Shown piece after piece: positions 28,630 to 43,126 of a stretch of DNA of 64,000 nucleotides. The notes under the pieces are model-generated. The model saw nothing but the letters and a program-made list of their open reading frames with translations, was not told the origin of the DNA and made no database searches. A program made the translations under genes and the position numbers. How positions within the stretch are numbered: the stretch's first letter is position 1; every line of letters begins with the position of its first letter. The DNA comes from Ignavibacteriota bacterium (GTDB lineage Bacteria; Bacteroidota; Ignavibacteria; UBA10030; UBA6906), in assembly GCA_963801355.1 (NCBI GenBank), contig CAWDEM010000004.1, forward strand, positions 640,001-704,000, read 5' to 3'.

Positions 28630-28721
28630 GCCGATCAGTCCGACCTCCATGCCATTCCCAGATATGCAAATCCGCCTCAATGGTGTTTCATTTTTTGAGA
28701 ATTTCTAAGGAGAGGATACTT

Positions 28722-30863
28722 GTGAGGCATTTCTTACTACTGTTCGCCTTTGGATTGCTCGCTGTTCCGACAGCCGCGCAAACAAATTCGGAGTGCCTCG
28801 CGTGTCATGGTGACAAGTCATTGTCAATGACCAAAAAGGGGAAGACGGTTTCCCTGTTTGTGGATGCAACAGCCTATGGCACATCGGCTCACAACGGATT
28901 GGGATGTGTGGGATGTCATGAGGGGTTCAATCCCAATGAGCTTCCTCACAAACCGAGGATTACGCCGGCCACGTGCAGCACCTGCCACTCGGGTGACCAA
29001 TTTGCGGGCTTTGCTACAAGTGTTCACGGCCGGAACCGGGGGAGGAAGGGACCGGCAGCCGCATGCGGGGATTGCCACACGACGCACGCCGTACAAAGTG
29101 TCTCCTCGCAGGAAGCCGCAAGTCGAAAAGCGTATGCGGAAAACATATGTGCCCGATGCCACGGCGAGGTGAATGCTCGCTATGTCCAGTCTGATCATGG
29201 TGTGGCGCTTCTGGCAGGAGTGAAGGGGGCACCGAGTTGCATCGATTGCCATGGCGAGCACAACGTGGAATCACCGCAGGATTCGAGTTCGACTACAGCC
29301 CACGGCAATCAGGCAAGAGTCTGTCTCGCGTGTCATCTCGATAACCCTGATGTCCGTGCCCGTGTCGGACCGTCGGCGGGTTTTGTGTCGAGCTACGAGG
29401 CGAGCGTTCACGGGCAGGCGGTAAAGGCCGGGAACAACGCAGCGGCGACATGCACTGATTGTCACGGCAGCCACGACATGAAGAAGGGGTCGAATCCGAC
29501 CTCGACTGTTGCCAAGGCCAATATCGCAAACACGTGCGCGCGATGCCATTCTGCCATCCGCGAGCAATACGACTATAGTATCCATGGCGTCGCACTCAGG
29601 CGCGGTGTTGGCGCGTCGCCGACGTGTACCGACTGCCATGGAGAACACAACATCCTTTCTCCCAAGGACATCCGGTCTCCGGTGGCTGCGGCCAATGTGT
29701 CTGCACAAGTCTGTTCCCCCTGCCATGCCTCAGTGAAGCTCACCGAAAAATTCGGTCTCTCCAGTGACAGGTTCAAGAGTTATCAAGATAGTTATCACGG
29801 TCTCGCTGAACAGGCTGGTGCGGTTGAAGTGGCCAACTGTGCAAGCTGTCACGGCATCCATGACATCAAGCCTTCCACCGATTCAACCTCGCGGATCCAC
29901 CCGGCAAACCTGAGCAGGACGTGTGGGACCTGTCATCCGGGCGCCAACCAGAATTTCACGCGGGGGAAAGTGCACATTATCGCCGCCTCCGGATCGGATG
30001 ACATCCTGTACTTCGTTTCCAACGGCTATATCGTTCTGATCGTTGTGCTCATCGGCGGGATGTTTCTCCACAACGTACTGGACTTCGTAAAGAAGTCCCG
30101 CCGGCAACTCGGGTATCGCCGTGGAGAAATTGTACGACCGTATGCTCCCCACCGCCTGTATGTGCGGATGAGTCTTGGCGAACGAATACAGCATGGGACG
30201 CTGTTGGTGAGTTTTTTCACTCTCGTGTTCACCGGGTTTGCCCTCCGGTATCCAGATGCCTGGTGGGTCTCGCCGATCATGAACGTGAGTCCGGTGATTT
30301 TCGAGTTGCGGGGCATTTTGCATCGCCTTGCCGGTGTCGCCATGGTCGCGGCCGGGCTGTACCACATCTTTTATATCCTGTACGTCCCCCGCGGCAAGGA
30401 GCTCATACGCGACCTGCTTCCGCGCAGGCAGGATCTCCTTGATGCCCTGGCGGTGCTGAAATACAACATCGGCATGTCTCCACTGAAGCCGAAGTTTGGG
30501 CGATTCAGCTACATCGAGAAAAGCGAGTACTGGGCGCTCGTGTGGGGGACTATTGTCATGGCGCTGACGGGTTTCATCCTGTGGTTTGACAATGTCACCC
30601 TCGGTCTGCTTACCAAGAGTTGGTGGGATGTCGCGCGGACGGTGCACTTCTACGAAGCCTGGCTTGCGACGCTTGCCATTTTGGTTTGGCACTTCTATTT
30701 CGTTATCTTCAACCCTGACACGTATCCCATCAATCTTGCTTTCTGGAAGGGAACGTTGACAGAAGAGGAGATGGAGGAAGAACACCCTCTCGAATTGGAG
30801 GCGCACAGGCTTCGCCAGCGTCAGGCGGAGGAAGAGGCGGAAGAAGGCGCGGAAAAGGTTTGA
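28722..30863 (+). CDS. CbcL-like fusion: 13-heme periplasmic cytochrome c plus FdnI-type cytochrome b membrane domain
   Basis: GTG start with AGGAGAGG RBS, signal peptide, 13 CxxCH, then ERIQH..LHR..FGRFSYIEK..VHFYEA..WHFY cytochrome b helices. Confidence 0.88.
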   Translation: MRHFLLLFAFGLLAVPTAAQTNSECLACHGDKSLSMTKKGKTVSLFVDATAYGTSAHNGLGCVGCHEGFNPNELPHKPRITPATCSTCHSGDQFAGFATSVHGRNRGRKGPAAACGDCHTTHAVQSVSSQEAASRKAYAENICARCHGEVNARYVQSDHGVALLAGVKGAPSCIDCHGEHNVESPQDSSSTTAHGNQARVCLACHLDNPDVRARVGPSAGFVSSYEASVHGQAVKAGNNAAATCTDCHGSHDMKKGSNPTSTVAKANIANTCARCHSAIREQYDYSIHGVALRRGVGASPTCTDCHGEHNILSPKDIRSPVAAANVSAQVCSPCHASVKLTEKFGLSSDRFKSYQDSYHGLAEQAGAVEVANCASCHGIHDIKPSTDSTSRIHPANLSRTCGTCHPGANQNFTRGKVHIIAASGSDDILYFVSNGYIVLIVVLIGGMFLHNVLDFVKKSRRQLGYRRGEIVRPYAPHRLYVRMSLGERIQHGTLLVSFFTLVFTGFALRYPDAWWVSPIMNVSPVIFELRGILHRLAGVAMVAAGLYHIFYILYVPRGKELIRDLLPRRQDLLDALAVLKYNIGMSPLKPKFGRFSYIEKSEYWALVWGTIVMALTGFILWFDNVTLGLLTKSWWDVARTVHFYEAWLATLAILVWHFYFVIFNPDTYPINLAFWKGTLTEEEMEEEHPLELEAHRLRQRQAEEEAEEGAEKV

Positions 30864-30867
30864 TCTG

Positions 30868-32868
30868 ATGACCGCTCGCTCGTCCATCGTCCGTATCCTT
30901 GCCATTGTGGCTCTCTTGCTGGTGAGCAGGCTCTTTGTTGCGGCGCAGGAGTCGAGCGATTGCCTTGCCTGTCACGACGATAAGTCTCTGGAAGGAACCA
31001 AGCAGGGTAAGACCGTTTCTATGTACGTCGACGCCAGGAAGTTTGCCGGGTCCGTGCATGGGTCCGTTCCTTGCGTTGGATGTCACAAGGATGTGGAAGG
31101 CAAGGAGCTGCCGCACGAAGACGCCTTGGCTCCCGCAGTCTGCTCTGACTGCCATGCGAAGGAAGTGCAACTGCACGCTGAGTCGTTGCACGGCAAAGCT
31201 GCAAAGCGTGGTGATCCTCTTGCTCCCCGATGCGCCGACTGTCACGGTGCTCATGCCATCGTACCAATAAAAGATGTGCGCTCTTCGGTCTCTCCTCTCA
31301 AGATTCCCTTTCTCTGCGGCAAATGCCACCAGGAAGGCGCGCCGGTGGCACGACGGCGGACTATTCACCAGGATCATATCCTGGAGAACTTCTCAGAGAG
31401 CATACACGGTGAAGGATTGTTGCGGAAGGGCCTGATCGTTTCAGCAACCTGCGCCTCATGTCATACGGCGCACTCGATACTGCCGCACACGGACCCCGCA
31501 TCCTCCATCGCGCGGAGAAATATTGCGGCAACCTGCACCAAGTGTCATGCGCAAATCGAGATGGTGCATCGCAAGGTGATCAAAGGCGAACTGTGGGAGA
31601 AGGAAGCTCATGTGCTGCCGGCGTGTGTTGACTGTCACCAGCCCCACAAGGCACGGCGTGTGTTCTACGATCAGGGAATGGCTGACAAAGACTGCATGCG
31701 CTGTCACGAACGGGCAGATCTTGTAGCCGCCAAAGATCGGCGGACCATGGCGGTAAATCCCGCGGAGCTTGCCGGATCGCGCCACGCACGCATCTCGTGC
31801 AGCCAGTGCCATGCAGGAGTCAACGTCGCCAAGGAACGTCCCTGCGAAACAATCATACTGAAGGTCGACTGCGCCTCCTGTCATGCCGAGGTCGGTCAAC
31901 AGTATGTGAAAAGCACACACGGACAACTCAACGCCAAGAACGATCCGAATGCACCGACCTGTAAGGAGTGTCACGGTACACATGGGGTGCTGGGGAAGGC
32001 ACAAGCCCGGTCTGCGACATTCCCGACCAATGTGCCCGATCTCTGTGCTCGCTGCCACCGTGAAGGGCAAAAAGCTGCGGTGCGCTACACCGGAGACCAG
32101 AAACAGATTGTCGAACGGTATCGTGAAAGCACTCACGGCAAGGGAATTGCCAAGGGTGGATTGACTGTCACAGCGATGTGCACAAGCTGTCACACCGCTC
32201 ACTCCGTCCTTCCGAGGAGCGACTCGCTCTCGAGCATTCATCCCGCCAACGTCCCCTCGACATGTGGCAAATGCCACCATGGTGTGGAAGAGCAGTTTGC
32301 CTCAAGCGTCCACGTGACCCAGCGCGGCAAAACGGACAAGACACTTCCGGTATGCGACGACTGCCACAGCGCCCATACCATTCGACGGGCGGATGAAGAG
32401 GGATTCAAGCTCACCATCATGAATCAGTGCGGTCGCTGCCATGAGTCTATCGCCAGGACGTATTTTGAAACCTACCATGGCAAAGTCTCCCAACTCGGAT
32501 ACACCAAGACAGCAAAGTGCTATGATTGCCATGGGGCACATGACATACGGGCGATTGGTGACCCGCGGTCTCGTCTCAGCCGCGACAATGTCGTAGCTAC
32601 CTGTCAACAATGCCACAGTGGCGCGAACAGACGGTTCGCGGGCTATCTGACACACGCGACGCATCATGACCCCGAGAAATATCCCTGGTTATTCTGGACA
32701 TTCTGGGGGATGACCGGACTCCTCATTGGGACGTTTGTTGTCAGCGGTGTTCACACATTGCTGTGGCTGCCGCGGGCGTTGAGCTGGAAGCGCCAGCGCG
32801 CGAAGGCGGCGCTCGAGGAACAAGCGAAGGCAACATCTGCAGAAGGCGAGACAACCGATGGCGCTTGA
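30868..32868 (+). CDS. 19-heme cytochrome c with a C-terminal membrane anchor
   Basis: Signal peptide, 19 CxxCH counted, C-terminal WLFWTFWGMTGLLIGTFVVSGVHTLLWL helix. Confidence 0.9.
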   Translation: MTARSSIVRILAIVALLLVSRLFVAAQESSDCLACHDDKSLEGTKQGKTVSMYVDARKFAGSVHGSVPCVGCHKDVEGKELPHEDALAPAVCSDCHAKEVQLHAESLHGKAAKRGDPLAPRCADCHGAHAIVPIKDVRSSVSPLKIPFLCGKCHQEGAPVARRRTIHQDHILENFSESIHGEGLLRKGLIVSATCASCHTAHSILPHTDPASSIARRNIAATCTKCHAQIEMVHRKVIKGELWEKEAHVLPACVDCHQPHKARRVFYDQGMADKDCMRCHERADLVAAKDRRTMAVNPAELAGSRHARISCSQCHAGVNVAKERPCETIILKVDCASCHAEVGQQYVKSTHGQLNAKNDPNAPTCKECHGTHGVLGKAQARSATFPTNVPDLCARCHREGQKAAVRYTGDQKQIVERYRESTHGKGIAKGGLTVTAMCTSCHTAHSVLPRSDSLSSIHPANVPSTCGKCHHGVEEQFASSVHVTQRGKTDKTLPVCDDCHSAHTIRRADEEGFKLTIMNQCGRCHESIARTYFETYHGKVSQLGYTKTAKCYDCHGAHDIRAIGDPRSRLSRDNVVATCQQCHSGANRRFAGYLTHATHHDPEKYPWLFWTFWGMTGLLIGTFVVSGVHTLLWLPRALSWKRQRAKAALEEQAKATSAEGETTDGA

Positions 32869-33712
32869 CAGCACAGAGCAGAGAAACGAACGTCAGTTCC
32901 TGCGGTTTTCGCGATTGAACAGGATCCTGCACGCTCTGATGATCGTGTGCTTCCTCAGCCTGGCACTCACAGGGATGACGCTGAAGTTTTCGTACACTGC
33001 CTGGGCGTCAATTCTGTCCCGGTTGTTCGGAGGATATGAAATCGCCGGCTATGTGCACCGCTTTGCCGCCACGGTCATGATCGGCGTCTTTGTCACGCAC
33101 TTGATTGACCTCTTTCATCGGGCAAAGAGGGAACGTGGCGGCTGGAAGGGTCTGCTCTTCGGGCCGGATACGATGTTGCCAACGCGCCGGGACCTTGATG
33201 AATCGTTCAAATCGCTCAAATGGTTCCTCGGCCTGGGAGAACGGCCGCAATTCGGCAGGTGGACCTATTGGGAAAAATTTGATTATTTTGCCGTATTCTG
33301 GGGAATGGTCGTGATCGGGTCCACGGGTCTGACCCTCTGGTTCCCCGAGGTCTTTACTGTGATTTTTCCTGGCTGGCTCATCAACGTCGCGACAATTATT
33401 CATAGCGATGAAGCATTACTGGCGACGGGATTCATTTTTACGGTCCATTTCTTTAATACCCACCTCCGCCCCGAGAAGTTTCCGATGGACCTTGTGATTT
33501 TCACGGGTCGGATGGCCGTTGAGGAGCTCAAGGAGGATAAACCGGCAGAGTACGATCGGCTCGTCAACGATGGAACGTTGGAGCAGCATCTCGTCGAATC
33601 ATATCAGCCCATCGTGATTCGCTCTATCCGTGTCTTCGCGTGGCTTGCGTTGGGCATCGGGTTCAGCATGGTCGTGTGGATCATTTACGCGATGCTGTTC
33701 GCGTACCAATGA
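32858..33712 (+). CDS. FdnI/CbcB-type diheme cytochrome b
   Basis: [32 protein letters not shown]; overlaps the upstream cytochrome gene. Confidence 0.88.
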
Positions 33713-33755
33713 TCCGGCCAGCACTGTTGTTTCACCACCGCTGTCAGGCAGTATC

Positions 33756-35249
33756 ATGAAAAGGATCTTCCCTGCATCGTTCTACAATCTTGTATCGCTC
33801 ATTGGTTTTGCGATTGCCGGTGTCAGCCTCGGACTCATCTTCTTCCTCATGCTGCTCGAGGTCATGTCGGGGACCCCGAAACCCTACATGGGAATCCTTG
33901 CCTTCGTGGTGCTGCCGGCGATTCTTCTCCTCGGCCTCATTATTGCCATTGTCGGGATATTCCGTGCACATCGGGATGCCCGCAAGGGACACCCGCACGG
34001 GATGCACCTGCCCCGCATCGACCTGAACAATCCACATCACAGATCGGCTTTCGTTGCCGTGTCGTTCGGGGCCATACTTCTGCTGCTCCTGTCGGCATTC
34101 GGCAGCTTCAAGGCGTACGAACATACGGATTCGGATCAATTCTGCGGGGAAACATGTCACCAGGTCATGGAACCGGAGTATACCGCATACCAGTATTCCC
34201 CGCATGCCCGAGTCGGCTGCGTAAAATGTCATATCGGCTCGGGTGCTGACTGGTTTGTCCGATCGAAACTCTCCGGGACATACCAGCTGTACGCTACAAC
34301 ATTCAACAAGTATCCCCGCCCGATTCCGACGCCCATCGAAAACCTGCGTCCGGCTCAGGAAACTTGTGAACAGTGTCACTGGCCGAAACACTTCTTCAGC
34401 GAGAAGCTGATGAAGAATACCTACTTTCTTTCAGATGACCAGAATACGACATGGTCGATTGATCTTCTGATCAAGATCGGCGGCGGGAATTCAGAGGCCG
34501 GGCCGACTTCGGGCATCCACTGGCACATGAATATCGCAAATGAGCTGACCTATCTCCCGGCGGATTCGTCCCGTCAGACAATTCCCTGGATCCGTTCACG
34601 GGGTCCGGATGGGAAGGTGGTAATCTATAAGAGCACTGAGAGCACGCTCACTGATGAGGAGATGCGGAACGCCAAAACCCGACGAATGGATTGTATCGAC
34701 TGTCACAATCGTCCCACCCATATCTACCATCCGCCGGCCCGGTCTGTGAATCGTGTGATGGCGATGGGGTGGATTGACCCGACCCTTCCTGGAGTGAAGG
34801 GGCTCGCGGTGAACGCGCTTGAAAATCCCTACGCGTTAAGGCAGGGGGCGCTGGACAGCATCAAACTGACCATTGAGGATTACTATCGCACCACGTATCC
34901 AGACCTGGCTGTCGCCAAGAAGAAACAAATCGACAGTGCAGTCGCCGAGGTCCAGAAGATTTACAGCCGCAATTATTTTCCTGAGATGCGTGTAAATTGG
35001 AAATTCTTCCCGAACAATATCGGACATTTGTACTACCCTGGCTGTTTCCGCTGTCACGATGGGAAGCATGTGTCGGAGGACGGGAAAGTGCTGTCGCGAG
35101 ACTGCAACGTCTGTCACACGATTCTTGCCCAGCAGTTCCAGCAGGATACCGCGCGGGTCTCGCTGACCGGCATCGAGTATCGGCATCCGACGGACATCGG
35201 AGACGCATGGAAAGAGACAAATTGCAGCGATTGTCATAATCAGCAATGA
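33756..35249 (+). CDS. ImcH-like NapC/NirT-family inner-membrane 7-heme cytochrome
   Basis: Three N-terminal TM helices, FCGETCH (CX3CH) plus 6 CxxCH, WFVRSKLSG..YPRPIPTP; this architecture matches Geobacter ImcH. Confidence 0.8.
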   Translation: MKRIFPASFYNLVSLIGFAIAGVSLGLIFFLMLLEVMSGTPKPYMGILAFVVLPAILLLGLIIAIVGIFRAHRDARKGHPHGMHLPRIDLNNPHHRSAFVAVSFGAILLLLLSAFGSFKAYEHTDSDQFCGETCHQVMEPEYTAYQYSPHARVGCVKCHIGSGADWFVRSKLSGTYQLYATTFNKYPRPIPTPIENLRPAQETCEQCHWPKHFFSEKLMKNTYFLSDDQNTTWSIDLLIKIGGGNSEAGPTSGIHWHMNIANELTYLPADSSRQTIPWIRSRGPDGKVVIYKSTESTLTDEEMRNAKTRRMDCIDCHNRPTHIYHPPARSVNRVMAMGWIDPTLPGVKGLAVNALENPYALRQGALDSIKLTIEDYYRTTYPDLAVAKKKQIDSAVAEVQKIYSRNYFPEMRVNWKFFPNNIGHLYYPGCFRCHDGKHVSEDGKVLSRDCNVCHTILAQQFQQDTARVSLTGIEYRHPTDIGDAWKETNCSDCHNQQ

Positions 35250-35302
35250 ACAGTCGCACACGATCTGGCGATCCACTCCATGAACCTCCCCAGAGAACTG
35301 TC

Positions 35303-35752
35303 ATGAACGAGATCGATACGAATCATCAAGGGAAAAGGGATTTTCTTAAATACCTGCTCGGGGGGGGGCTGGTTGCCTGGACCGTTTCGGTGCTGTATCC
35401 TCTGTTTGCGTACATGCGGCCACCCGTGCAGGCGGAAGTGGAAGTCAGCAGTGTCAATGCAGGAAAGCTGAGCACATTTGAGAAAGACAGCGGGGCCATC
35501 ATCCGCTTCGGCAACAAACCGGTGATTTTGATCCGGTCGTCTGCCGGAGAACTCCGCGCCTTTTCTGCGACCTGCACCCATCTCGATTGCACGGTGCAAT
35601 ACCGGAAGGACTTGGGGGTGATATGGTGTGCATGCCACAATGGGAAATATGACTTGAACGGTTCCAATATTGCGGGTCCGCCGCCCCGGCCGCTGGATGA
35701 GTACAGAGTAGTCGTTCGGGGGGATGATATCCTCATCTCAAAGAAAACATGA
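35303..35752 (+). CDS. Rieske 2Fe-2S protein
   Basis: Tat-like KRDFLK plus TM helix, CTHLDC and CACHNG boxes, GPPPRPL. Confidence 0.92.
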
Positions 35753-36828
35753 AGACGATCTGGAACAGACTCTACACATGGATAGATGAACGGGTACAGC
35801 TCGACGACCTGATAGCGTTTATGGCGAAGAAGTACGTGCCCGTTCATCGCGGCTCGATCTGGTACTATTTCGGAGGCGTGTCGCTCTTTCTGTTCATTAT
35901 TCAGGTCGTGACAGGCATCCTTCTTCTCCTGTACTATAAAGGAAGCGAATCGCTGGCGTTCGAAAGCATTCAGTTTATCATGTCAAAGGTGAGCTTTGGC
36001 TGGCTGATCCGATCCATCCATAGCTGGACGGCGAACCTGTTTATTCTTGCGGCGCTCATCCACATGTTCAGTGTCTTCTTTGAGCGGGCGTACCGGCGCC
36101 CCCGTGAGCTTACGTGGTTTACCGGCATGGTGATGCTTTTTGTCGGGCTCGGGTTTGGCTTCAGTGGCTATCTGCTTCCCTGGAATGAGCTGGCTTTTTT
36201 TGCGACGAAAGTGGGAACCGATATCGCCGGTGTGATCCCCGTCGTCGGCAAACCGATAATGATCTTCCTCCGGGGCGGACCCGACGTCACAGGCGCGACG
36301 CTCTCACGATTCTTCGGTTTTCATATTGCGGTGCTGCCGGGAATTTTCACCGTATGCCTGGCCGTTCACCTCCTGCTGGTCCAACGTCAGGGCATGAGTC
36401 AGCCGCAGGAGTTCGAATCGAAGCCTGACGAAAACCCGAAGACCATGCCGTTCTTCCCAAACTTCCTCCTTCGCGACCTCCTGTTTTGGCTGATCATTCT
36501 CAATATCCTGGCTATGCTGGCGGTGTTCTTCCCGTGGGAGCTCGGAAGGAAGGCAGATCCGTTCGCGTCTGCTCCCGCCGGCATAAGGCCGGAATGGTAT
36601 TTTCTCTTCATGTTCCAGTCGCTGAAGTATATCCCTGCACGACTCTGGTTTATTGACGGTGAGGTGTTTGGAGTTCTCGCATTCGGAGCAGCGGGTCTGC
36701 TCTGGCTCCTGGTACCGGTCTGGGACCGCAAGAGCTCCCGGGGGGAACGAAACCGGCTGATCACCTACGTAGGGTTGTTTGTGGTGATCTACATTGTTAT
36801 CTTTACACTACTGGGGTGGTTCCTGTGA
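35749..36828 (+). CDS. Cytochrome b of a Rieske/cytochrome b complex (b6 and subunit IV fused)
   Basis: WLIRSIH..IH, GYLLPW, FHI..VH, PFFP, RPEWYF. Confidence 0.93.
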
Positions 36829-38327
36829 GTACGAACCTCATGCGACCCGTCGTGTGCGCGGCGGTGGTCTGCGTCGGTCTTTGTGTGACCACAGCTCTGG
36901 CTGCAGACAAATGTCTGCTCTGTCATGGCGCTGTGGGGGACAAGCCGTCGTCGCTCTATAAGCGAGATATTCATCATCTGAAAAGCATCAGTTGTGCAGG
37001 ATGCCATGGAGGCGACTCCTCCACAGATGATATGGAGAAGGCGATGGATCGCGGGGCAGGATTCATCGGTGTTCCCCAGGGTGATGATATTTCGGCGGTG
37101 TGTGCCCGGTGCCACTCCGAGGCGGCACGGATGGAAGGGTTTCGCTCTAAGCTTCCCACCGACCAGTATGTTCTTTTACAGTCAAGTGTGCACGGCAAGT
37201 TGTCGATCAGCGGGAAAGCACGCATCGTCCAATGCACGACGTGCCACAATGCACACGGCATTGCACGAGTCACTGATCCCGCCTCACCGGTCTATCCGCT
37301 CAACGCAGTAACTACATGTTCCCGTTGTCATGGCGACGCGGGATTTATGCGGGCGTACAACCCATCGTTGCCGGTCGACCAGAGGGAAAAATATCGCACG
37401 AGCGTCCACGGGGCCAAGAATGCCGCCGGTGATGCCAAGACTGCGGAATGTGTGAGTTGCCATGGGAGTCACGATATCCTTTCGGTCAAGGATGTCAAGT
37501 CGAAAGTGTATCCGACGAATATTCCTGCGACCTGCGCCTCGTGCCACAGCAACGCGAGCTATATGAAAGGGTATGCCGTCCCGACCGACCAATTCGAGAA
37601 GTATGCGAAGGGCGTACACGGCGTGGCGCTGCTCGAAAAGCGCGATCTCGGCGCACCCGCGTGCAACAGCTGCCACGGAAATCACGGGGCTACTCCTCCG
37701 GGAGTGGAATCGATCTCGAAGGTGTGCGGCACATGTCACGCGCTGAACGCCGACCTGTTCTCGTCGAGCCCTCACAAGAAGGGTTTCGACGAAATGGGAA
37801 TGCCGGAGTGCGAAACATGCCATGGGAACCATGAGGTTGTAGCCGCAGGGGATGTTCTGCTGGGAACTTCTCCAGGGACTACGTGCAGCCGCTGCCACAG
37901 CCGGCAGGAGCGGGAGAAAGGCTATATCGCAGCGGGTAACATGCGGATCGTGATGGATAGTCTGGAGCGTGCCGAAGACCGGGCACGGAGCCTTGTGGAT
38001 GAAGCGGAGCAAAAAGGCATGGAGATCGGCGAGGCGAAATTCAAGCTTCGTGACATCCGGCAGGCGCGGTTGGAAACACGAACGATGGTCCATGCCTTCA
38101 ATGAAGAAAAATTCCGGGAGACGGCGGTGAAGGGGTTTGCCGTGGCCACGGTCGTCATCGGCGACGCAGAACATGCCGTCGACGAATACTTTTTCCGGCG
38201 CATCGGACTCGGAGCAGCAACGCTGATCATTACCATCCTTGCTGTTTCCCTCTACCTGTATATTCGAAGGATTGAGCGAAGCCAGCGACACGCTGAAGCA
38301 ACACGTCAACAACCACGATCACATTAA
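36825..38327 (+). CDS. 11-heme membrane-anchored cytochrome c (probable acceptor subunit of the Rieske/b complex)
   Basis: Signal peptide, 11 CxxCH, helical stalk, C-terminal TM helix; start is GTG 36825 or ATG 36840. Confidence 0.88.
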
Positions 38328-38345
38328 CCTTCAAGGAGAAACAGT

Positions 38346-38882
38346 ATGCGGTATCTACGCATGTTGAGTGGAGTTCTGGTGTTCGCGATCGTCCTCGCGT
38401 TCACGGGCATTGCAGAGAACAAGTACGTTGGGACGAAATCGTGCGCTATGTGCCACAAAGCAAAGGACAAAGGAGAAACCTTTGTGATCTGGCAGAAGAG
38501 CGCCCATGCGAATGCGTTCAAGACGCTTGAATCGGAGGCAGCCAAGAAAATCGCCAAGGAGAAAGGCATTGAGAAACTTCCTACAGAAGCCCCCGAATGC
38601 CTCTCGTGTCATGTGACCGGCGGCGGCACGGCAAAAAATGTCGAAGCCACTTTTAGTGTGAAGGAAGGTGTCACCTGCGAGGCATGCCACGGTCCGGCGT
38701 CCGGGTTCAAGATGATCCACAACAAGCCCGAGAACAAGGCGAAAGCAGTTCAGGCCGGCCTGATCATCGGCGACAAAGCGAAGACGTGCGAAACCTGTCA
38801 CAACGCGAAGAGCCCGACCTTCAAGGGATTCAAGATGGAGGAGATGTGGGCGAAGATCGAGCACAAACTACCGAAGAAATAG
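38346..38882 (+). CDS. Periplasmic tetraheme cytochrome c (c554-like)
   Basis: Signal peptide, YVG..SCAMCH, W..SAH, CLSCH, GVTCEACHGP, CETCH; very Lys-rich; AAGGAG RBS. Confidence 0.87.
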   Translation: MRYLRMLSGVLVFAIVLAFTGIAENKYVGTKSCAMCHKAKDKGETFVIWQKSAHANAFKTLESEAAKKIAKEKGIEKLPTEAPECLSCHVTGGGTAKNVEATFSVKEGVTCEACHGPASGFKMIHNKPENKAKAVQAGLIIGDKAKTCETCHNAKSPTFKGFKMEEMWAKIEHKLPKK

Positions 38883-38988
38883 CGGTCCGGGGTTGAAGGG
38901 AACCACAGGGCCGCCACACGGCGGCCCGGGATCCCTGTGCGGGGAGCACCTCCTCATTGCCATAAGGCGGTCTTGAAAGGGAATTGGT

Positions 38989-40302
38989 ATGAATGGAATA
39001 CGCCTTCTCAGTCTCATCATGCTGGTGGTCTTCAGCGTGGCGATGGCAACCGCCCAACTGGTGACGGGACGCCTGGCGACATCGTTCTATGCCTGGGAAC
39101 AATTCGACACCGTCGGGACATCGCACCAATCGGTGCGTGCGTTCCAGGCCGTCCAGCTGTCGGCCGCCCAGGGTGATGTCGCCCTGCACACATCGCTCCT
39201 GGGGACGACAAATGTCGTGGGCGAGTTCGGTGACGCGGGAAGGGTGCGCCTCTTCAATCTGTATGTGAGCTGGCTGAACATCGGCAAGAGCGTGGACCTG
39301 CATCTCGGCCGCCAGCTGGTGTTCGCGGGAGTCGGCAACGGTTCCATCGACGGGCTCGTGGCGCAGGCCTATTTCCTCAACCGCGGGATCCGCGTGACGG
39401 GCTTCGGCGGGGCAACCGTGTCGCCCGAGTTCGCCGGTGTGAGGAAGAACATGCACGAGAACTACCATGTTGGCGCACAGATTGTCACTACGATGATCCC
39501 CGACGCCCGCATCGGCATCAGCTATGCCAACCGCCGGGAAGAGCGTGATCCCTACATGGCGCTCCGCACGCGCGATACATCCTTTACTCCTGTGTCGTAC
39601 CTGGTCATGCATGACGCCGACGCCGAAGAACTGGGGAGTGCCGACGCTTCCTACACGTTCCGCGACCGGTTGTCGGTGTACGGACGGTACGACTACGATT
39701 TCAAGAATGTGCGGACCTCCCGGGCACAGGGCGGCGTACGCGTCAACGTCACCAGTGACCTTGCCGTCACCGGTGACTATATCCACCGTCTTCCGCGCAT
39801 CTCCTTCAATTCCATCTTCTCGGCATTCGTCACGAATGCGGTGGATGAGATTGAAGGCGGGGTGGACTACGGCTTTACGCCGATGCTTCGCGCCTTCGGC
39901 CGCCTGGCACATGTCTCCTACGCGGAAGATGAACAGAGCACGCGGTGGACCCTCGGTGTGAACAGCGCCTACGGGAGTGCAAGTTATTCCGGCAGTGACG
40001 GCTATGCGGGAGAGCTGCAGTCGGTCAGTCTGCAGGGCACGTATCCGTTCTGGGGAAAGACTGTCGTGCCGATGGCCGGTGTCTCGTACGCATCGTACCG
40101 CTTGAGCAGGGAAAGCGAGCGTGAGAGTGCGTTCGGCGTTCTGGCCGGGGCCATCGTGCGACCCGCCCCTTCATTCTCGCTGGATGTGCAGGGGCAATGG
40201 CTGAACAACACCTTGATGCGGCGCGATCTGCGCGTGCAGGTGAAACTCATGTACTGGTTTGCAGAGCGGCTTTCACTCTTCAACGGGGAGGGCACACGAT
40301 GA
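38989..40302 (+). CDS. Outer-membrane beta-barrel (putative porin of a porin-cytochrome conduit)
   Basis: Signal peptide, no Cys, alternating amphipathic strands rich in Y/F/G (LHLGRQ, YGRYDYDF); flanked by multiheme genes. Confidence 0.75.
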   Translation: MNGIRLLSLIMLVVFSVAMATAQLVTGRLATSFYAWEQFDTVGTSHQSVRAFQAVQLSAAQGDVALHTSLLGTTNVVGEFGDAGRVRLFNLYVSWLNIGKSVDLHLGRQLVFAGVGNGSIDGLVAQAYFLNRGIRVTGFGGATVSPEFAGVRKNMHENYHVGAQIVTTMIPDARIGISYANRREERDPYMALRTRDTSFTPVSYLVMHDADAEELGSADASYTFRDRLSVYGRYDYDFKNVRTSRAQGGVRVNVTSDLAVTGDYIHRLPRISFNSIFSAFVTNAVDEIEGGVDYGFTPMLRAFGRLAHVSYAEDEQSTRWTLGVNSAYGSASYSGSDGYAGELQSVSLQGTYPFWGKTVVPMAGVSYASYRLSRESERESAFGVLAGAIVRPAPSFSLDVQGQWLNNTLMRRDLRVQVKLMYWFAERLSLFNGEGTR

Positions 40303-41507
40303 ACCGGCGCTCGTCTATCGTTCTGGTGGTTGCGGCCGGCCTGCTCGTGACGGCGGCCCTCGCGGTTCGCCCGGCGGCACAGATCGGGTGGCCCCGGCTT
40401 GATGACAGCACGCACATGAAATTCTCACACAAAACGCACATCGAAGGCGCGGGTGTCGGTTGCGAGACGTGTCATCCCAACGCATCCACCAGCAAACTCT
40501 CCGCCGACAATCTCCGCAGTGTGCACGACAACTGCATGTCCTGCCATGAGGAACAGATCAACAATCAGTGTGATTTCTGCCACGTTGATCCGGACAACGT
40601 ACAGGCGGCCCCTGGGCAGGTGCGTGAGATCCAGTTCTCGCACGTCCAGCATGTGGGTATGCCCGGCGTGCAATGTACGACATGCCATGCGGGGCTGAAT
40701 GAAGCCGATTTTGCAGGTCCGGAACATATGCCTGCGATGGCTGTCTGCGCGACGTGTCACAATGATAGGAAAGCCAGCAACGCGTGCGAATCCTGTCACA
40801 CACAGCTGACAGGTCTGATACCTCCGGATCACCTTGTGGCGGGGTTCAAGAGGAATCACAAGAACCTGACCCGTCTGAGTGGCATGGAGACCAATTGCAG
40901 TACCTGTCATACACAGAATTTCTGCGGCGAATGCCACACGCCGGGTGCGGTGATGCAGTTCGGGAACGGTCCGCTGATGAGCGATCCCAATCCGCGTGTC
41001 TTTCCCGGAACGTCGGTACCGCAAACGACGCTGCAGCGCGCTCACGATATGAACTATCGCTTCACCCATGGTATCGACGCAAAGTCAAAATCGTCGGAAT
41101 GCTACACCTGCCATGCGGCACAGGAGTTTTGCGGTGAATGCCACGCGGCGGGAGACAATATCACATCGTATTCCTTCAAACCATCGTGGCACCTTGGTGC
41201 CGGTTTCACGACGCTCGGCGTCGGGAGCGGCGGGGGCCGTCATGCCCAACTCGCCCGGCGCGACATCGAGTCCTGCGTGAACTGCCATGATACACAGGGC
41301 AATGACCCGATCTGCATTACCTGTCACGCCGATGGCGATGGTTTCAAAAATACGGATCCCCGGACACATCAGGCGGGGTACATGCGAGGGGAACACGGTG
41401 CATGGCACGTCAATAGCGGCGCCACGTGCTATAATTGTCACACAGACCTCAATGCGCGTCCTGACGGGGTCAAAGGCAGAAACTTCTGCGGCTATTGCCA
41501 CGGCTAA
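40299..41507 (+). CDS. 14-heme periplasmic cytochrome c (c3/c7-like modules)
   Basis: ATG overlaps the porin stop, signal peptide, FSH..H...CxxCH modules, 14 CxxCH. Confidence 0.9.
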   Translation: MNRRSSIVLVVAAGLLVTAALAVRPAAQIGWPRLDDSTHMKFSHKTHIEGAGVGCETCHPNASTSKLSADNLRSVHDNCMSCHEEQINNQCDFCHVDPDNVQAAPGQVREIQFSHVQHVGMPGVQCTTCHAGLNEADFAGPEHMPAMAVCATCHNDRKASNACESCHTQLTGLIPPDHLVAGFKRNHKNLTRLSGMETNCSTCHTQNFCGECHTPGAVMQFGNGPLMSDPNPRVFPGTSVPQTTLQRAHDMNYRFTHGIDAKSKSSECYTCHAAQEFCGECHAAGDNITSYSFKPSWHLGAGFTTLGVGSGGGRHAQLARRDIESCVNCHDTQGNDPICITCHADGDGFKNTDPRTHQAGYMRGEHGAWHVNSGATCYNCHTDLNARPDGVKGRNFCGYCHG

Positions 41508-41523
41508 GGAGGATGGAATATCC

Positions 41524-42930
41524 ATGAGAGCATTGATGAGGTCGTTAGGGAGTGCCATCATTACTATTCTCCTCGGTCTGGGAGCCGCGGGTTGCGGTGC
41601 GCTGAACGAAGACCTTCCCGCGCCCAACAAACCGGAATCACAAATCCATGAGACCGGCTGGAATGACCAGACGTCTGCGAACTTCCACGGTACAATCCTG
41701 CAGGCCGGCAACTATGATTACGCGAAGTGCGTGACCTGTCACGCAAAGTCGTTTGCGGGCGGGACCAGCGGCGTGGGCTGCTTTTCCTGCCATCAATCCT
41801 TCCCTCACAAAGCCGGCTGGCTTGATGCCTCATCAAACAACTTCCATGGCAAGTTCCTCCGCCTTGGCATGGGTCAGCTGGTTGATTGTGCGAAATGCCA
41901 TGGCACAGGGTTTGACGGCGGGACCAGCGGCAAGTCATGCTACACATGTCATGCCTCCTACCCGCACAAGTCCGGATGGTTGGATCCTGCATCGTCGGTC
42001 TCACACGGGAAATTCCTGAAGACAAAGAACTGGCAGGTGGTAGAGTGTGCACAGTGCCACGGAAGTGATTTTGCCGGCGGAAGCAGCGGGAAAGCCTGCT
42101 TCACATGTCATGCATCGTATCCCCACACCGTGTTTGTCGCCGCGTCCGGGCATGCGGGCTACCTGTTGAGTCACGGGTATCCCCTTGCTCAGTGCAAGAG
42201 CTGCCACGGCAACGCATATACAGGCGGATCGGTCGTGAACGTCTCCTGCTCAACCGCAGGATGCCATGTGGACAACACCGGAGCGGCTAAATCGCCGGAG
42301 GCGTGCAATACCTGTCACGGACAATTCCGCGCGTTGGCGAGCGATGCCCTCTCGGCCGCGCCGCCCAAAAGCGTGCTGGGTGATTCTCTCACGAGCGCGC
42401 GAGGGGTCGGCGCGCATGCCAAACATCTGTTGTCCGGCACCCTGGGCAGGCCAGTGAAGTGCGCGGAGTGCCATGCGAAGCCGGCGTCGTTGTTCGCTTC
42501 CGGACATGTCGATACACCGCTGCCGGCCGAAGTGGCGTTCAATGACACTCTCGCCCGACTGAAAACAGGGGGAGGGACCTTCGATCCCGCTCCAACATAC
42601 AATCCGACAACACTGAAGTGTGCCAACACCTATTGCCACGGCAACTGGCAGATGAAGAAGTCCGAATCCATTTATGCGTATATCTTCACGGACTCGGTAA
42701 TGGTCGGTGCCTCAGCGGGACCGTCGTGGAGCGAAGGAGCTTCGGTGGCATCATGCGGCAGTTGCCATGGCACAGCGGAGTCCGTCACGCCAAAGGGTCA
42801 CATGGCGTTCAATCTGAACAGCTGCGTCAACTGCCACATCGGCGTTGTCAATGGCTCAGGCCAGATCATCAATCAGGCACTGCACATCAATGGCAAGGCC
42901 AACAGCTTTGGTTCCGAGCGGTCATTCTGA
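41524..42930 (+). CDS. Outer-membrane lipoprotein multiheme cytochrome (11 CxxCH plus 2 CX4CH)
   Basis: Lipobox GAAGC, CSTAGCH and CANTYCH, Geobacter-type CX4CH...CxxCH...HING C-terminus. Confidence 0.87.
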   Translation: MRALMRSLGSAIITILLGLGAAGCGALNEDLPAPNKPESQIHETGWNDQTSANFHGTILQAGNYDYAKCVTCHAKSFAGGTSGVGCFSCHQSFPHKAGWLDASSNNFHGKFLRLGMGQLVDCAKCHGTGFDGGTSGKSCYTCHASYPHKSGWLDPASSVSHGKFLKTKNWQVVECAQCHGSDFAGGSSGKACFTCHASYPHTVFVAASGHAGYLLSHGYPLAQCKSCHGNAYTGGSVVNVSCSTAGCHVDNTGAAKSPEACNTCHGQFRALASDALSAAPPKSVLGDSLTSARGVGAHAKHLLSGTLGRPVKCAECHAKPASLFASGHVDTPLPAEVAFNDTLARLKTGGGTFDPAPTYNPTTLKCANTYCHGNWQMKKSESIYAYIFTDSVMVGASAGPSWSEGASVASCGSCHGTAESVTPKGHMAFNLNSCVNCHIGVVNGSGQIINQALHINGKANSFGSERSF

Positions 42931-42970: not shown

Positions 42971-43012
42971 GAATCCCGGTTCCGCTCATGCGGGGCCGGG
43001 ATTCCTGCTTTT
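42971..43012 (+). terminator. Terminator hairpin ending the cytochrome operon
   Basis: gaatcccggttccgc-tcat-gcggggccgggattc (15-bp stem, 2 G-U pairs) followed by ctgctttt. Confidence 0.7.
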
Positions 43013-43045: not shown

Positions 43046-43126
43046 TCCCATTGAGCGCAGAAGAGCGCAAATTCCCTCAAATCGCTATCTAATGGTCGTT
43101 TTTGCGTGTTTGTGATGGTGGACCGG

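Follow-up and report, generated by a model that had tools for sequence, protein, structure and literature searches.

In the window (the whole 64,000-nt stretch of DNA analysed), a putatively sigma-54-controlled operon, probably of 13 genes, may encode cytochromes that link the membrane quinone pool to the cell surface. From the sequence, we give this reading a probability of about 0.6. The parts run from inside to outside as the original prediction had it: inner-membrane quinol modules, a tetraheme cytochrome, a barrel, a 14-heme cytochrome and a lipoprotein cytochrome. The features are as follows.

24751..26175, +, cytoplasmic PAS histidine kinase (Pfam PAS_9, HisKA, HATPase_c; no TM-like segment)
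26168..27532, +, sigma-54-dependent response regulator: receiver (Response_reg), AAA+ (Sigma54_activat, 229 bits) and HTH_8
27648..27662, +, sigma-54-type element P1, TGGCAC-N5-TTGA, 34 nt 5' of the USP start codon
27696..28178, +, universal stress protein (USP; Pfam Usp, 109.7 bits), syntenic in relatives
28201..28629, +, small conserved protein, weakly receiver-like (Response_reg 15.8 bits, below the 30.2 cut-off)
28677..30863, +, g1, CbcL-type fusion protein: 13-heme periplasmic domain (13 CxxCH) followed at the C-terminus by an FdnI/HydC-like cytochrome b membrane domain
30868..32868, +, g2, 19-heme cytochrome (19 CxxCH) with one C-terminal TM helix
32858..33712, +, g3, FdnI/HydC-like cytochrome b (PF01292 31.5 bits, cut-off 30.1)
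33756..35249, +, g4, ImcH-type heptaheme quinol oxidoreductase, NapC/NirT family (PF03264 43.2 bits vs 24.1; 6 CxxCH and 1 CxxxCH)
35246..35752, +, g5, Rieske 2Fe-2S subunit (PF00355 46.6 bits; N-terminal anchor; CTHLDC and CACH boxes)
35749..36828, +, g6, cytochrome b, b6/bc type (PF00033 166 bits, PF00032 48.7 bits)
36816..38327, +, g7, 11-heme cytochrome (11 CxxCH; C-terminal TM-like segment 459-477)
38346..38882, +, g8, soluble c554-type tetraheme cytochrome (4 CxxCH, signal peptide, PF13435 67 bits)
38989..40302, +, g9, outer-membrane beta-barrel (437 aa, 22-24 strands, without plug domain)
40299..41507, +, g10, 14-heme periplasmic cytochrome (402 aa, 14 CxxCH)
41524..42930, +, g11, lipoprotein cytochrome (11 CxxCH and 2 Cx4CH; lipobox LGAAG|C)
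42971..43004, +, intrinsic terminator-like hairpin that ends the unit (15-pair stem, 10 G-C pairs, T-rich tail)
43102..45402, +, CcmF/NrfE-family heme lyase paralogue, probable start 43177 (PF01578 107 bits, PF16327 59 bits)
43127..43141, +, sigma-54-type element P2, TGGCAC-N5-TTGA, 50 nt 5' of the probable CcmF start

Gene layout and heme content

Eleven co-oriented ORFs on the + strand span 28677-42930, with starts refined by signal peptides. Neighbouring genes overlap by 4-13 nt at g2/g3, g4/g5, g5/g6, g6/g7 and g9/g10, with exactly four nt at g4/g5, g5/g6 and g9/g10. The remaining junctions are gaps of 4 (g1/g2), 43 (g3/g4), 18 (g7/g8), 106 (g8/g9) and 16 nt (g10/g11). The eleven co-oriented genes, small gaps and terminator that had been proposed were all found, with no gap above 106 nt and a 15-bp stem at the end. 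The hairpin is by far the strongest site of a terminator scan that was otherwise near chance overall (20 sites vs 14.9 expected). The gene set was also as predicted, but the start given at 28722 was not: g1 begins about 45 nt earlier, at 28677, and the transcription unit probably begins two genes earlier still, at 27696, with a sigma-54-type element before it. We infer co-transcription of what would be a sigma-54-controlled unit of 13 genes, 27696-42930. The 106-nt gap 5' of g9 could hold an internal promoter.

A recount of c-type heme motifs in the eleven genes agrees with the predicted total of 81, made up of 78 canonical CxxCH, one CxxxCH and two Cx4CH. Only 12 ORFs in the whole 4.8-Mb genome have at least three CxxCH. 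Seven of these 12 are in the operon, which holds 78 of their 113 CxxCH, and this concentration is no chance pattern. Each of g4-g11 is single copy in the genome.

Inner-membrane quinol modules

Judged by domains and motifs, four different modules of the operon look like membrane cytochrome systems that oxidise quinol. Domains and architecture confirm the predicted inner-membrane quinol modules, with one exception: the bc-like module is a Rieske/cytochrome b one, and no pair resembling CbcBA was identified. In g1, TM-like segments lie within residues 446-678, and residues 497-679 match PF01292 (54 bits, cut-off 30.1); the protein also matches TIGR01583, formate-DH gamma. The g2 and g3 products are the predicted cytochrome and membrane halves, respectively, of a split CbcL/MtoC/MtrH-type protein. 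The motif spacing of g2 is that of a 19-heme, 6-TM Ignavibacteria homologue (Shi 2018 Table S2) at an offset of 23-24 residues, and g3 is 32% identical to the g1 C-terminal domain. Among 23 relatives, g2 and g3 form one fused protein in 10 and two genes in 13.

The g4 product has three TM-like segments, a CxxxCH motif first, at residue 130, and CxxCH at 155, 204, 313, 430, 450 and 490. With ImcH-type features defined after PMC4251993 and PMC6295460, this architecture fits ImcH homologues (Shi 2018 Table S3), and one of the listed homologues, from Ignavibacteriales, has its motifs at almost the same positions. The N- and C-terminal cytochrome b parts are joined in one protein in g6, for which NF040969 (ExtP) is the second-best NCBIfam match at 203.5 bits, below the 290 cut-off. 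Since g5 and g6 are the only Rieske and cytochrome b copies of the genome, the pair may also serve other respiratory branches. We take g7 as their putative cytochrome c partner; it accompanies g5 and g6 wherever found in relatives.

Tetraheme cytochrome and porin-cytochrome trio

The tetraheme g8 matches cytochrome c554 (1bvb) with an E value of 2.6e-11 and is likely a periplasmic carrier. The original prediction depended on the 38989-40302 product being a barrel, and the predicted fold of g9 is a large plug-less outer-membrane barrel, which upholds that point. The AF2 model, built from 102 sequences, has a pLDDT of 94.0, a pTM of 0.86 and 24 DSSP strands. In fold comparison it comes closest to FyuA (Z 19.4), FimD (19.1) and Cir (18.9), 22- or 24-strand barrels that normally enclose a plug or pilus subunit; g9 has no such domain. 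MtrB is a 26-strand barrel. It ranks 29th, with a Z score of 15.6, below the TonB-dependent receptor barrels, and an rmsd of 6.3 over 356 residues. Foldseek also likens g9 to substrate channels, among them AlgE and Occ porins. At the sequence level, no Pfam or NCBIfam family matched g9, and a PDB profile search returned only TbuX (E 8.5e-4) and EstA (E 0.033), with no link to OmbB or MtrB.

All 14 heme motifs of g10 are invariant across 53 sequences. Its N-terminal part matches the multiheme chain 3ov0 (E 3.6e-31). With the DmsE/MtrA family model, g10 reaches 16 bits (cut-off 192), and a profile of g10 homologues reaches only E 0.007 with 6r2q chain A. We presume that g10 is a wire inserted in the barrel.

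The lipobox of g11 bears out the predicted 13-heme lipoprotein, and the TIGR01904 CxxxxCH/CxxCH domain is matched at 43.1 bits (cut-off 27). A rule-based search finds a lipobox in 57/68 g11 homologues. Heme number varies among these relatives from about 5 upward, mostly 5-13, g11 itself having 13 motifs. Of these 57, 11 also have a strict K-(D/E)2 or Q-A-(D/E)2; g11 itself has N-E-D, and its N-terminus is only a loose fit to the Bacteroidetes surface-export signal. The protein is presumed to be the cytochrome of the outer face.

Regulators, promoter elements and heme lyase

The PAS kinase, likely the sensor for the cluster, has homologues 76-88% identical in the equivalent position in relatives. 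Fourteen loci extend at least 2.6 kb 5' of g1; six of them, all in the closer clade, have the sigma-54 regulator ahead of the cluster. P1 has one mismatch to TGGCAC-N5-TTGC, its -12 part reading TTGA, not the canonical TTGC. It is found at the equivalent place in 9/9 relatives that keep the regulator-to-next-gene spacer, within flanks that have diverged, and rpoN is present in the genome. The USP gene is probably the first of the unit; the small protein after it has syntenic homologues 51-77% identical.

Beyond the terminator, the CcmF/NrfE paralogue may be a lyase dedicated to the atypical heme motifs. Of the 46 loci with enough sequence, 31 have it no more than 2.5 kb 3' of g11, and a P2-like element stands directly 5' of it in 23/36 relatives. 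The other CcmF/NrfE copy of the genome, on contig C8, is 44% identical.

Distribution among relatives

The nearest relatives are MAGs named as Ignavibacteriae/Bacteroidota, in keeping with an Ignavibacteria-type host. The barrel is present in 186/301 sampled genomes of the class; the multiheme barrel locus is not rare, and the arrangement is common in the class. Among the 47 loci with the full 10 kb upstream of the barrel, 43 have at least part of an inner-membrane module within that distance 5', and 10 have the complete set. Thirteen different module combinations occur in these 47 loci, and content differs even inside one taxonomic family.

Comparison with known systems

Porin-cytochrome sets were said to have been predicted in Ignavibacteria, and they have: IALB_1837-1840 of Ignavibacterium album form the same four-gene tail of periplasmic c-cytochrome, porin-like protein, 14-heme cytochrome and outer-membrane cytochrome (PMC4245776). 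IALB_1838 (400 aa, 14 motifs, periplasmic) resembles g10 (402 aa, 14 hemes), and IALB_1837 has atypical heme motifs like g11 (PMC4245776). The I. album proteins are described there as "distantly related" to the rest (Shi 2014, PMC4245776). That account, in the part describing the locus, covers the Pcc genes and an adjacent c-cytochrome; the operon adds quinol modules, regulators and a heme lyase. A MAG named I. album has the same neighbours, and its proteins are 37% (barrel), 49% (14-heme) and 36% (lipoprotein) identical to those of the operon.

The order barrel, periplasmic multiheme, lipoprotein multiheme is shared with OmbB-OmaB-OmcB of Geobacter sulfurreducens. Heme counts differ, with 8 and 12 in the Geobacter conduit and 9 in CbcL against 14, 13 and 13/19 here. 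ImcH- and CbcL-type architectures are both in the operon, whereas in Geobacter the inner-membrane quinol oxidases are at separate loci. The earlier statement that the Geobacter systems lie at separate loci holds for OmbB-OmaB-OmcB, ImcH and CbcL, but extHIJKLMNOPQS unites a porin-like protein, c-cytochromes and a Rieske/cytochrome b pair, as the operon does (PMC5877670). As described in that work, the ext cluster further includes a selenocysteine cytochrome and a protein like rhodanese, is without ImcH- or CbcL-type genes and is linked to selenite/tellurite reduction; g6 falls below the ExtP equivalog cut-off.

Shewanella MtrCAB (PDB 6R2Q), with a cytochrome wire in a large barrel and a surface lipoprotein cytochrome, has a plan like that proposed for the operon. 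Quinol-side genes are clustered with conduit genes, as here, in Rhodoferax, where cymA and mtrH adjoin mtrABC, and in Fe(II) oxidisers (PMC6295460). A "Bacteroidetes_1" MAG, likened here by its published description, has six multihemes, some with TM helices, and one beta-barrel: seven genes against 11-13 in the operon (PMC8258643). Its best database matches were in Bacteroidetes and Ignavibacteriae, its authors propose an uncharacterised EET cluster, and the organism rose 39-fold on an anode (PMC8258643). The passages that describe this cluster do not mention a Rieske/cytochrome b pair, regulators or a lyase, all features of the operon (PMC8258643).

Alternative readings

The direction of electron flow is something that sequence cannot tell. 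The flow could instead run inward, with Fe(II), a cathode, reduced humics or a syntrophic partner supplying electrons at the surface and the quinone pool, or else periplasmic reductases or oxidases, receiving them, the Rieske/cytochrome b and CbcL/MtoC-type modules working in reverse or splitting the flow. CbcL/MtoC/MtrH-family proteins are known in Fe(II) oxidisers as well as metal reducers, with no sequence feature that separates the directions (PMC6295460); the genome's sole Rieske/cytochrome b complex sits in the operon, and full-cluster relatives are described from nitrate-reducing reactor communities. We nevertheless consider inward flow unlikely, as ImcH has so far been tied to quinol oxidation only (PMC6295460) and published descriptions of cultured Ignavibacteria speak of Fe(III) reducers or heterotrophs, with members of the group enriched on anodes (PMC7399161, PMC8258643).

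The Geobacter ext cluster, reported to affect selenite/tellurite but not Fe(III) citrate reduction (PMC5877670), brings up a soluble or colloidal substrate (selenite/tellurite, polysulfide/S0, nitrogen or arsenic oxyanions) respired in the periplasm or at the barrel. The barrel would then mainly let substrate through or serve as an anchor, the role suggested for Geobacter ExtI, and would not sheathe a cytochrome wire; the rank of ExtP for g6 and the likeness to AlgE and Occ porins fit this. However, the ExtP match is sub-threshold, and profile searches of 27696-45402 found no catalytic subunit of molybdopterin, rhodanese or NrfA/HAO type. Plain import would also give the 27 channel-flanking hemes no obvious role, and the barrel, 14-heme and lipoprotein-cytochrome triad with its 4-nt coupling is the porin-cytochrome pattern, which makes a soluble substrate improbable in our view. 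We also doubt strongly that the genes are independent respiratory modules with partners elsewhere, co-located through genome organisation or repeated recombination. The 13 module combinations, varying within one family, would suit that view, as would the distance between g8 and g9 and a g4-g7 block closest to lineages with more distant barrels. Yet in the 43 loci with modules these stand directly 5' of the same barrel trio in the same orientation, start/stop overlaps couple neighbouring genes, and there is just one strong terminator. Since nearly all multihemes of the genome are in the operon, few partners would be left elsewhere.

Proposed electron path

In the preferred reading, from quinone pool to surface, electrons would enter the periplasm through four alternative inner-membrane modules acting as quinol:cytochrome c oxidoreductases: the 13-heme CbcL-type fusion, the split 19-heme CbcL/MtoC-type pair, the ImcH-type heptaheme protein and the Rieske/cytochrome b/11-heme complex. 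The modules may differ in the range of redox potential that they cover, as is the case for ImcH and CbcL in Geobacter. Transit through the periplasm could be via the long anchored heme chains themselves or via the c554-like tetraheme. The 14-heme cytochrome, threaded in the plug-less 22-24-strand barrel, would carry electrons across the outer membrane and hand them over to the 13-heme lipoprotein at the outer face. Heme attachment at the CX3CH and CX4CH motifs is probably the task of the second CcmF/NrfE lyase, whose promoter is of the same type. The cell would most likely use the path to respire anaerobically on acceptors outside the cell, for example Fe(III)/Mn(IV) minerals, humics, electrodes or partner cells. 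Counting against this reading are the occurrence of CbcL/MtoC/MtrH-family proteins in Fe(II) oxidisers, the genome's sole Rieske/cytochrome b pair, the missing sequence link of g9 to OmbB or MtrB, the loose export-signal fit of g11, the TTGA of P1 and the gap 5' of g9. Published accounts place Fe(III) reducers among cultured Ignavibacteria and report anode enrichment of Ignavibacteria and of the Bacteroidetes MAG with the seven-gene multiheme/barrel cluster (PMC7399161, PMC8258643).

The porin-cytochrome part and ImcH/CbcL homologues of Ignavibacteria are already in print, and the operon is a very complete instance. If read in this way, it would likely let electrons pass between the respiratory chain and the cell surface, outward, by a path whose outer part has already been predicted and is common in Ignavibacteria.

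Organization and boundaries of the operon

The original prediction described a single operon of eleven co-oriented genes with 81 c-type heme motifs, closed by a terminator and forming a possible electron conduit from quinone to the cell surface. We found eleven plus-strand open reading frames between 28.6 and 42.9 kb of the window, joined by overlaps of 4–13 nt or by gaps of 4–106 nt.

Operon genes g1 to g11 (ORF calls, with starts refined via signal peptides and hydrophobic segments)
g1, 28677-30863, +, 13-heme cytochrome with a C-terminal cytochrome b
g2, 30868-32868, +, 19-heme cytochrome
g3, 32858-33712, +, cytochrome b
g4, 33756-35249, +, putative ImcH-type cytochrome
g5, 35246-35752, +, Rieske protein
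g6, 35749-36828, +, fused b6-type cytochrome b
g7, 36816-38327, +, 11-heme cytochrome
g8, 38346-38882, +, tetraheme cytochrome
g9, 38989-40302, +, predicted barrel
g10, 40299-41507, +, 14-heme cytochrome
g11, 41524-42930, +, putative lipoprotein cytochrome

A recount of the heme motifs gave the same total of 81, made up of 78 canonical and 3 atypical motifs: 13 in g1, 19 in g2, 6 plus one CxxxCH in g4, 11 in g7, 4 in g8, 14 in g10, and 11 plus two Cx4CH in g11. The entire genome (4.8 Mb, completeness 100) has 12 ORFs with at least three CxxCH motifs. Seven of these 12 belong to the operon and contribute 78 of the 113 motifs found in such ORFs; the heme-motif density of the operon is not a matter of chance. 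The terminator is also present, as a hairpin at 42971-43004 with a 15-pair stem that includes 10 G-C pairs. Base composition dips to a G+C of 0.533 in the 34-36 kb region, versus ~0.57 around it.

The upstream boundary required revision. All eleven genes exist, but the unit probably does not begin at 28722 as proposed: g1 itself starts at 28677, and further genes precede it. A cytoplasmic PAS histidine kinase and a sigma-54-dependent response regulator lie upstream, followed by a 163-nt spacer. Inside this spacer is a sigma-54-type element (P1, TGGCAC-N5-TTGA, 27648-27662). It is located 34 nt upstream of a gene for a universal stress protein, after which come a small conserved gene and g1. 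P1 is found at the same position in 9/9 relatives that keep the spacer, while the flanks have diverged. Given this conservation and the position of P1 upstream of the two additional genes and g1, we take the unit to begin at 27696, so that it probably comprises 13 genes. The kinase and regulator were seen only in the closer clade, at 6 of the 14 loci with room upstream.

The genome encodes rpoN. The -12 part of P1 is TTGA, as opposed to TTGC. Genome-wide, TGGCAC-N5-TTGA and the TTGC version occur at 21 sites each, versus 10 with G and 8 with T at the last position, despite A being the rarer base. This parity may reflect a lineage-specific sigma-54 -12 element; the count is no proof of function. 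A scan for sigma-70 promoters was uninformative, as the 8 sites found equal the expected 8.0.

Four short metatranscriptomic contigs from one library (241-296 nt, ~93-98% alike) matched g1, g7, and g9 at 28925-29589, 37672-37912, and 39152-39447. They come from a close relative, and DNA carry-over is possible. A fifth contig had a match of only 34 nt, within g11. No contig bridged a gene junction of the operon, and we do not count these matches as evidence of expression.

Predicted inner-membrane quinol modules and the tetraheme cytochrome

Inner-membrane quinol modules had been proposed for this locus, and the CbcL and ImcH types were recognized: g1 and the g2/g3 pair fit the CbcL/MtoC/MtrH design, and g4 fits the ImcH architecture. 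None of the gene pairs was assigned to CbcBA, in which a b-type cytochrome (CbcB) is paired with a multiheme cytochrome (CbcA). The g1 protein has 13 CxxCH motifs followed by a C-terminal FdnI/HydC-like cytochrome b (PF01292, 54 bits versus a cut-off of 30.1, residues 497-679). Judged from its sequence, it has the CbcL architecture of an N-terminal periplasmic multiheme domain and a C-terminal HydC/FdnI-like membrane domain. The CbcL of Geobacter is a 619-aa protein with 9 hemes and 6 TM segments (Shi 2018 Table S2), as compared to the 13 hemes of g1. The g2 protein has 19 hemes and a single C-terminal helix, and g3 is a cytochrome b of the same family as the tail of g1, with 32% identity to it. 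Together, g2 and g3 appear to be a split version of the CbcL/MtoC/MtrH design. The 19 motif positions of g2 are those of OGU58019.1, at a constant offset of 23-24 residues; OGU58019.1 is a 952-aa, 19-heme, 6-TM Ignavibacteria protein listed among the CbcL/MtoC/MtrH homologues (Shi 2018). The 19-heme cytochrome/cytochrome b pair is one ORF in 10/23 related loci and two ORFs in 13/23. In the window (30868-33712), the pair is split, with an 11-nt overlap.

The architectural criteria for ImcH are three TM segments, NapC/NirT homology, and a first motif of the CX3CH type followed by six CX2CH motifs (PMC4251993, PMC6295460). The 497-aa g4 protein has TM-like segments at 7-25, 47-65, and 98-116, a match to PF03264 (43.2 bits versus a cut-off of 24.1), and CGETCH (CX3CH) at residue 130 as the first motif, with six CxxCH after it. 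Its sequence is thus predicted to be of the ImcH type by every one of these criteria. Its motif and TM positions are near those of PIU45462.1, an Ignavibacteriales ImcH homologue (Shi 2018 Table S3). Physiologically, ImcH is characterized by being needed to reduce high-potential extracellular acceptors. In the ESM Atlas, g4 sits with NapC/NirT-type clusters (449-512 aa) of Bacteroidota, Acidobacteriota, and Thermodesulfobacteriota.

The next three genes encode a Rieske 2Fe-2S protein (g5; PF00355, 46.6 bits), a fused b6-type cytochrome b (g6; PF00033, 166 bits; PF00032, 48.7 bits), and an 11-heme cytochrome with a C-terminal membrane anchor (g7). By family assignment, these represent a predicted set of Rieske protein, cytochrome b, and c-type cytochrome partner. 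Homologues of g5, g6, and g7 always co-occur in relatives, and g5 and g6 are the sole Rieske and cytochrome b genes of the genome. We considered g6 as an ExtP orthologue and rejected this assignment, as it scores 203.5 bits against the NCBIfam equivalog NF040969 with a cut-off of 290. The g8 protein is a soluble, c554-type tetraheme cytochrome. At related locus L001, the g8 homologue stands before the ImcH-type gene.

The predicted outer-membrane barrel and the two adjacent cytochromes

No Pfam or NCBIfam family matched g9. Relatives at E ≤ 0.001 numbered 194 proteins among 8000 candidates scored, two of them named (Ignavibacteriae and Bacteroidota), and 281 representatives also reached E ≤ 0.001. 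In the ESM Atlas, all 30 of the 30 nearest clusters lacked a Pfam family. The distant relatives that could be named, from 10 clusters looked up, belong to KSB1 and Handelsmanbacteria. A g9 profile searched against PDB sequences matched only TbuX (E 8.5e-4) and EstA (E 0.033), with no sequence match to MtrB.

An initial AF2 model of g9 from 28 sequences was poor (pLDDT 58.5) and was superseded by a model from 102 diverse sequences, with a pLDDT of 94.0 and a pTM of 0.86. The latter is all-beta, with 24 DSSP strands and no plug domain, so the product of 38989-40302 is confidently predicted to be a barrel, as first proposed. The best fold matches are 22- and 24-strand barrels with Z scores of 18.5-19.4: the TonB-dependent receptor barrel FyuA (Z 19.4, 4.8 Å rmsd over 364 residues), the FimD usher barrel (Z 19.1, 4.8 Å over 326 residues), and the TonB-dependent receptor barrel Cir (Z 18.9, 3.7 Å over 343 residues). 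TonB-dependent receptors form 22-strand barrels, and the usher forms a 24-strand one. MtrB (6r2q_B) ranks 29th, with a Z score of 15.6 and an rmsd of 6.3 Å over 356 residues. Because the model has no plug and its best matches are barrels of this kind, g9 is predicted to be a large, empty transmembrane barrel of a size class that normally encloses a protein domain. Such a predicted barrel is what a cytochrome sheath needs. Published HMM and BLAST searches, in the available text of PMC7399161 and PMC4245776, describe Ignavibacteria porins as OmbB-like but distant. An apparent fusion of the barrel to the 14-heme cytochrome in nine loci was ruled out by a stop codon in each.

The trio g9-g11 is contiguous, with a 4-nt overlap between g9 and g10 and a 16-nt gap between g10 and g11, and the same trio is seen in related loci. 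In the 402-aa g10 protein, all 14 CxxCH motifs and a set of distal histidines are invariant in 53 homologues. Its N-terminal part is homologous to c7 cytochromes and to the multiheme chain 3ov0 (E 3.6e-31), which we take to be the Geobacter dodecaheme GSU1996. We discarded g10 as a DmsE/MtrA-family decaheme, the wire of MtrCAB, based on its 14 hemes and a TIGR03508 score of 16.0 bits versus 192.2.

The g11 protein has a lipobox (LGAAG|C), a CxxxxCH/CxxCH domain, and two Cx4CH motifs; a search against PDB sequences found nothing. Its homologues share the mature N-terminus C-S-E-L-K-x-D-L-P, and that of the window's g11 is C-G-A-L-N-E-D-L-P. The strict Bacteroidetes surface-export signal is K-(D/E)2 or Q-A-(D/E)2 (PMC5080379, available text). 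We examined 68 g11 homologues and found a lipobox by rule in 57, a few of these hits being visibly false. The strict signal is present in 11/57 and a looser [KQN]-(D/E)2 in 16/57; in 40/57, two or more of the first eight residues are acidic. The N-terminus of g11 thus fits the export signal loosely, which is suggestive only and makes g11 a candidate for surface exposure.

In Ignavibacterium album, the published cluster comprises a periplasmic cytochrome (IALB_1840), a porin-like protein (IALB_1839), a 400-aa protein with 14 motifs (IALB_1838), and an outer cytochrome with atypical motifs (IALB_1837), as given in the available text of PMC4245776. The g9-g11 products agree with it in having a barrel, a ~400-aa 14-heme protein, and an atypical-motif outer cytochrome. 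By gene content, g9-g11 can be assigned to the Ignavibacterium-type porin-cytochrome (Pcc) gene clusters, with the transmembrane complex itself a prediction.

A linked heme lyase and other multiheme genes

A second sigma-54-type element (P2, 43127-43141) lies after the terminator and precedes a CcmF/NrfE-family heme lyase gene with a probable start at 43177 (window 43127-45402). This assignment holds at the domain level only (PF01578, 107 bits; PF16327, 59 bits), since the TIGR00353 score of 256 bits is below the cut-off of 569. The genome has a second, housekeeping-like CcmF/NrfE copy on contig C8, 44% identical. Of 46 loci whose sequence extends far enough, 31 have the CcmF paralogue no more than 2.5 kb downstream of g11. 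A P2-like element precedes it in 23/36 loci, and in several others the gene begins ~40 nt after g11. From this linkage, it is a reasonable inference that the paralogue would serve specifically as the lyase of the CX3CH and CX4CH motifs.

Elsewhere in the genome (G000), a 726-aa octaheme cytochrome is encoded at G000:C4:1119159-1121339. A type A sorting domain of the T9SS system was recognized in it (TIGR04183, 41.1 bits versus 23), so it is probably secreted or surface-attached. A sigma-54-type element, TTGGCACAACAGTTGAAA, is located at G000:C4:1118921, 238 nt upstream of the octaheme gene, and is near-identical to P1. The octaheme cytochrome may thus be an extracellular partner whose gene shares the operon's regulation. 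The genome's other multiheme ORFs are a 13-heme protein at G000:C4:1619264-1620778 (minus strand), with several sigma-54 activator-like genes nearby; two pentahemes of ~190-200 aa at C8:473466-474041 and C8:2014526-2015128; and a 4-heme, 451-aa protein at C4:726014-727369. Also within the window, a 940-aa beta-propeller and Omp85-superfamily protein (11793-15766, minus strand) adjoins a BamB-like PQQ-repeat protein; these look like outer-membrane biogenesis genes.

Distribution, modularity, and mosaicism

In a scan with one genome per species, 127 stretches encode a relative of the barrel. We kept 80 barrel loci, nearly all from Ignavibacteriota, Ignavibacteriae, or Bacteroidota MAGs. The barrel is present in 186 of 301 genomes in an even sample of the window's class, in 167/264 of the high-quality genomes, and in 88/136 when counted by genus. 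It is near-universal in some families and absent from others as sampled (e.g., 0/35 and 0/21).

Synteny across Ignavibacteria MAGs shows the barrel trio and upstream modules recurring with variable sets. At least part of an inner-membrane module was present upstream of the barrel in 43 of the 47 loci with a full 10 kb on that side, and none was seen in 4/47. The complete module set was found in 10 loci, all but the 19-heme pair in 9, all but the Rieske set in 7, and just the tetraheme with CbcL-type and ImcH-type genes in 6; these counts over 47 loci are lower bounds, as the 10-kb flank cuts long clusters.

Cluster content differs even inside the window's own family. L001 has the closest barrel relative (93% identical); its ImcH-type gene is only 54% identical, and it has no Rieske set. 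Lineages with 51-58% identical barrels carry g4-g7 homologues at 57-80% (compare L009-L023). By these identities, the locus appears to be a mosaic in which the g4-g7 block (33756-38327) is closest to lineages with a more distant barrel trio.

Interpretation and relation to known systems

Ignavibacteria are frequent inhabitants of sediments, aquifers, peat, wastewater granules, and anode biofilms. To our knowledge, their extracellular electron transfer has so far been inferred only from scattered gene hits.

That Pcc gene sets are predicted in Ignavibacteria, as the original prediction stated, is in print for I. album and M. roseus and for MAGs from aquifers, hot springs, lakes, and anodes (including PMC4245776 and PMC7399161, available text). 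ImcH and CbcL homologues of Ignavibacteriae have been tabulated (PMC6295460; Shi 2018 tables), and an anode-enriched Bacteroidetes MAG has a seven-gene cluster of a barrel and multihemes that its authors noted as uncharacterised (PMC8258643, available text). Quinol-side and outer-membrane parts are also joined in a Rhodoferax cluster (PMC6295460) and in the Geobacter ext locus (PMC5877670, available text). The Melioribacter multi-omics paper (PMC5492636) has no mention of multiheme, porin, Rieske, ImcH, or CbcL. Our literature search, which covered the text and a few supplements of openly accessible papers, turned up no account of the complete 11-13-gene arrangement, nor of its modular variation, sigma-54 elements, or linked heme lyase. 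The locus is a very complete member of a widespread family of Ignavibacteria porin-cytochrome clusters, with some anatomical detail that is new. The boundaries and regulation, namely the regulator pair, P1, the 13-gene extent, and P2 with the lyase, are new in this analysis.

Interpretation of the locus as a quinone-to-surface conduit is sound as a bioinformatic prediction, though unproven. Four inner-membrane modules would probably act as alternative quinol oxidants, and electrons would then pass along the anchored 11-, 13-, or 19-heme chains or via the tetraheme. From there, the 14-heme wire inside the barrel would deliver them to the lipoprotein cytochrome and an external acceptor. We infer the contacts along this route as well as its direction. 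The presence of several quinol modules has a counterpart in Geobacter, which uses ImcH and CbcL in a potential-specific way (PMC4251993, PMC6295460).

With its direction reversed, the same chain of cytochromes would serve Fe(II) oxidation or electron uptake, a reading we consider unlikely. An ext-type system that reduces a substrate in the periplasm seems more doubtful still. We give similarly long odds to a mere assembly of independent modules, a reading that has to be set beside both the variable module sets and the recurrence of modules upstream of a constant trio.

Beyond the outward conduit, the locus could be a self-contained, modular "electron-export cassette," although this is tentative and we would wager against it. 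One sigma-54 switch (PAS kinase and activator) would turn on the conduit and the lineage-specific quinol-oxidase modules. These modules would be interchangeable, each suited to its own range of acceptor potential, and recombination would exchange them among Ignavibacteria lineages. The regulon would take in the dedicated heme lyase for CX3CH and CX4CH sites, and the T9SS-secreted octaheme (G000:C4:1119159) may join it as the true extracellular terminal reductase. If this were true, a single ~18 kb piece of DNA would be enough to transplant complete extracellular respiration.

The finding leaves the concept of the porin-cytochrome conduit unchanged. In this class, the presumed route from quinol to the surface is usually one co-oriented block. 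Its inner-membrane part is built from variable modules, and the block as a whole can bring along a regulator pair and, in many loci, a heme lyase. The block is a compact unit for expression studies in cultured relatives, heterologous transfer, and structural work. For predicting metal or humic respiration from metagenomes, it is also a better marker than the barrel by itself.
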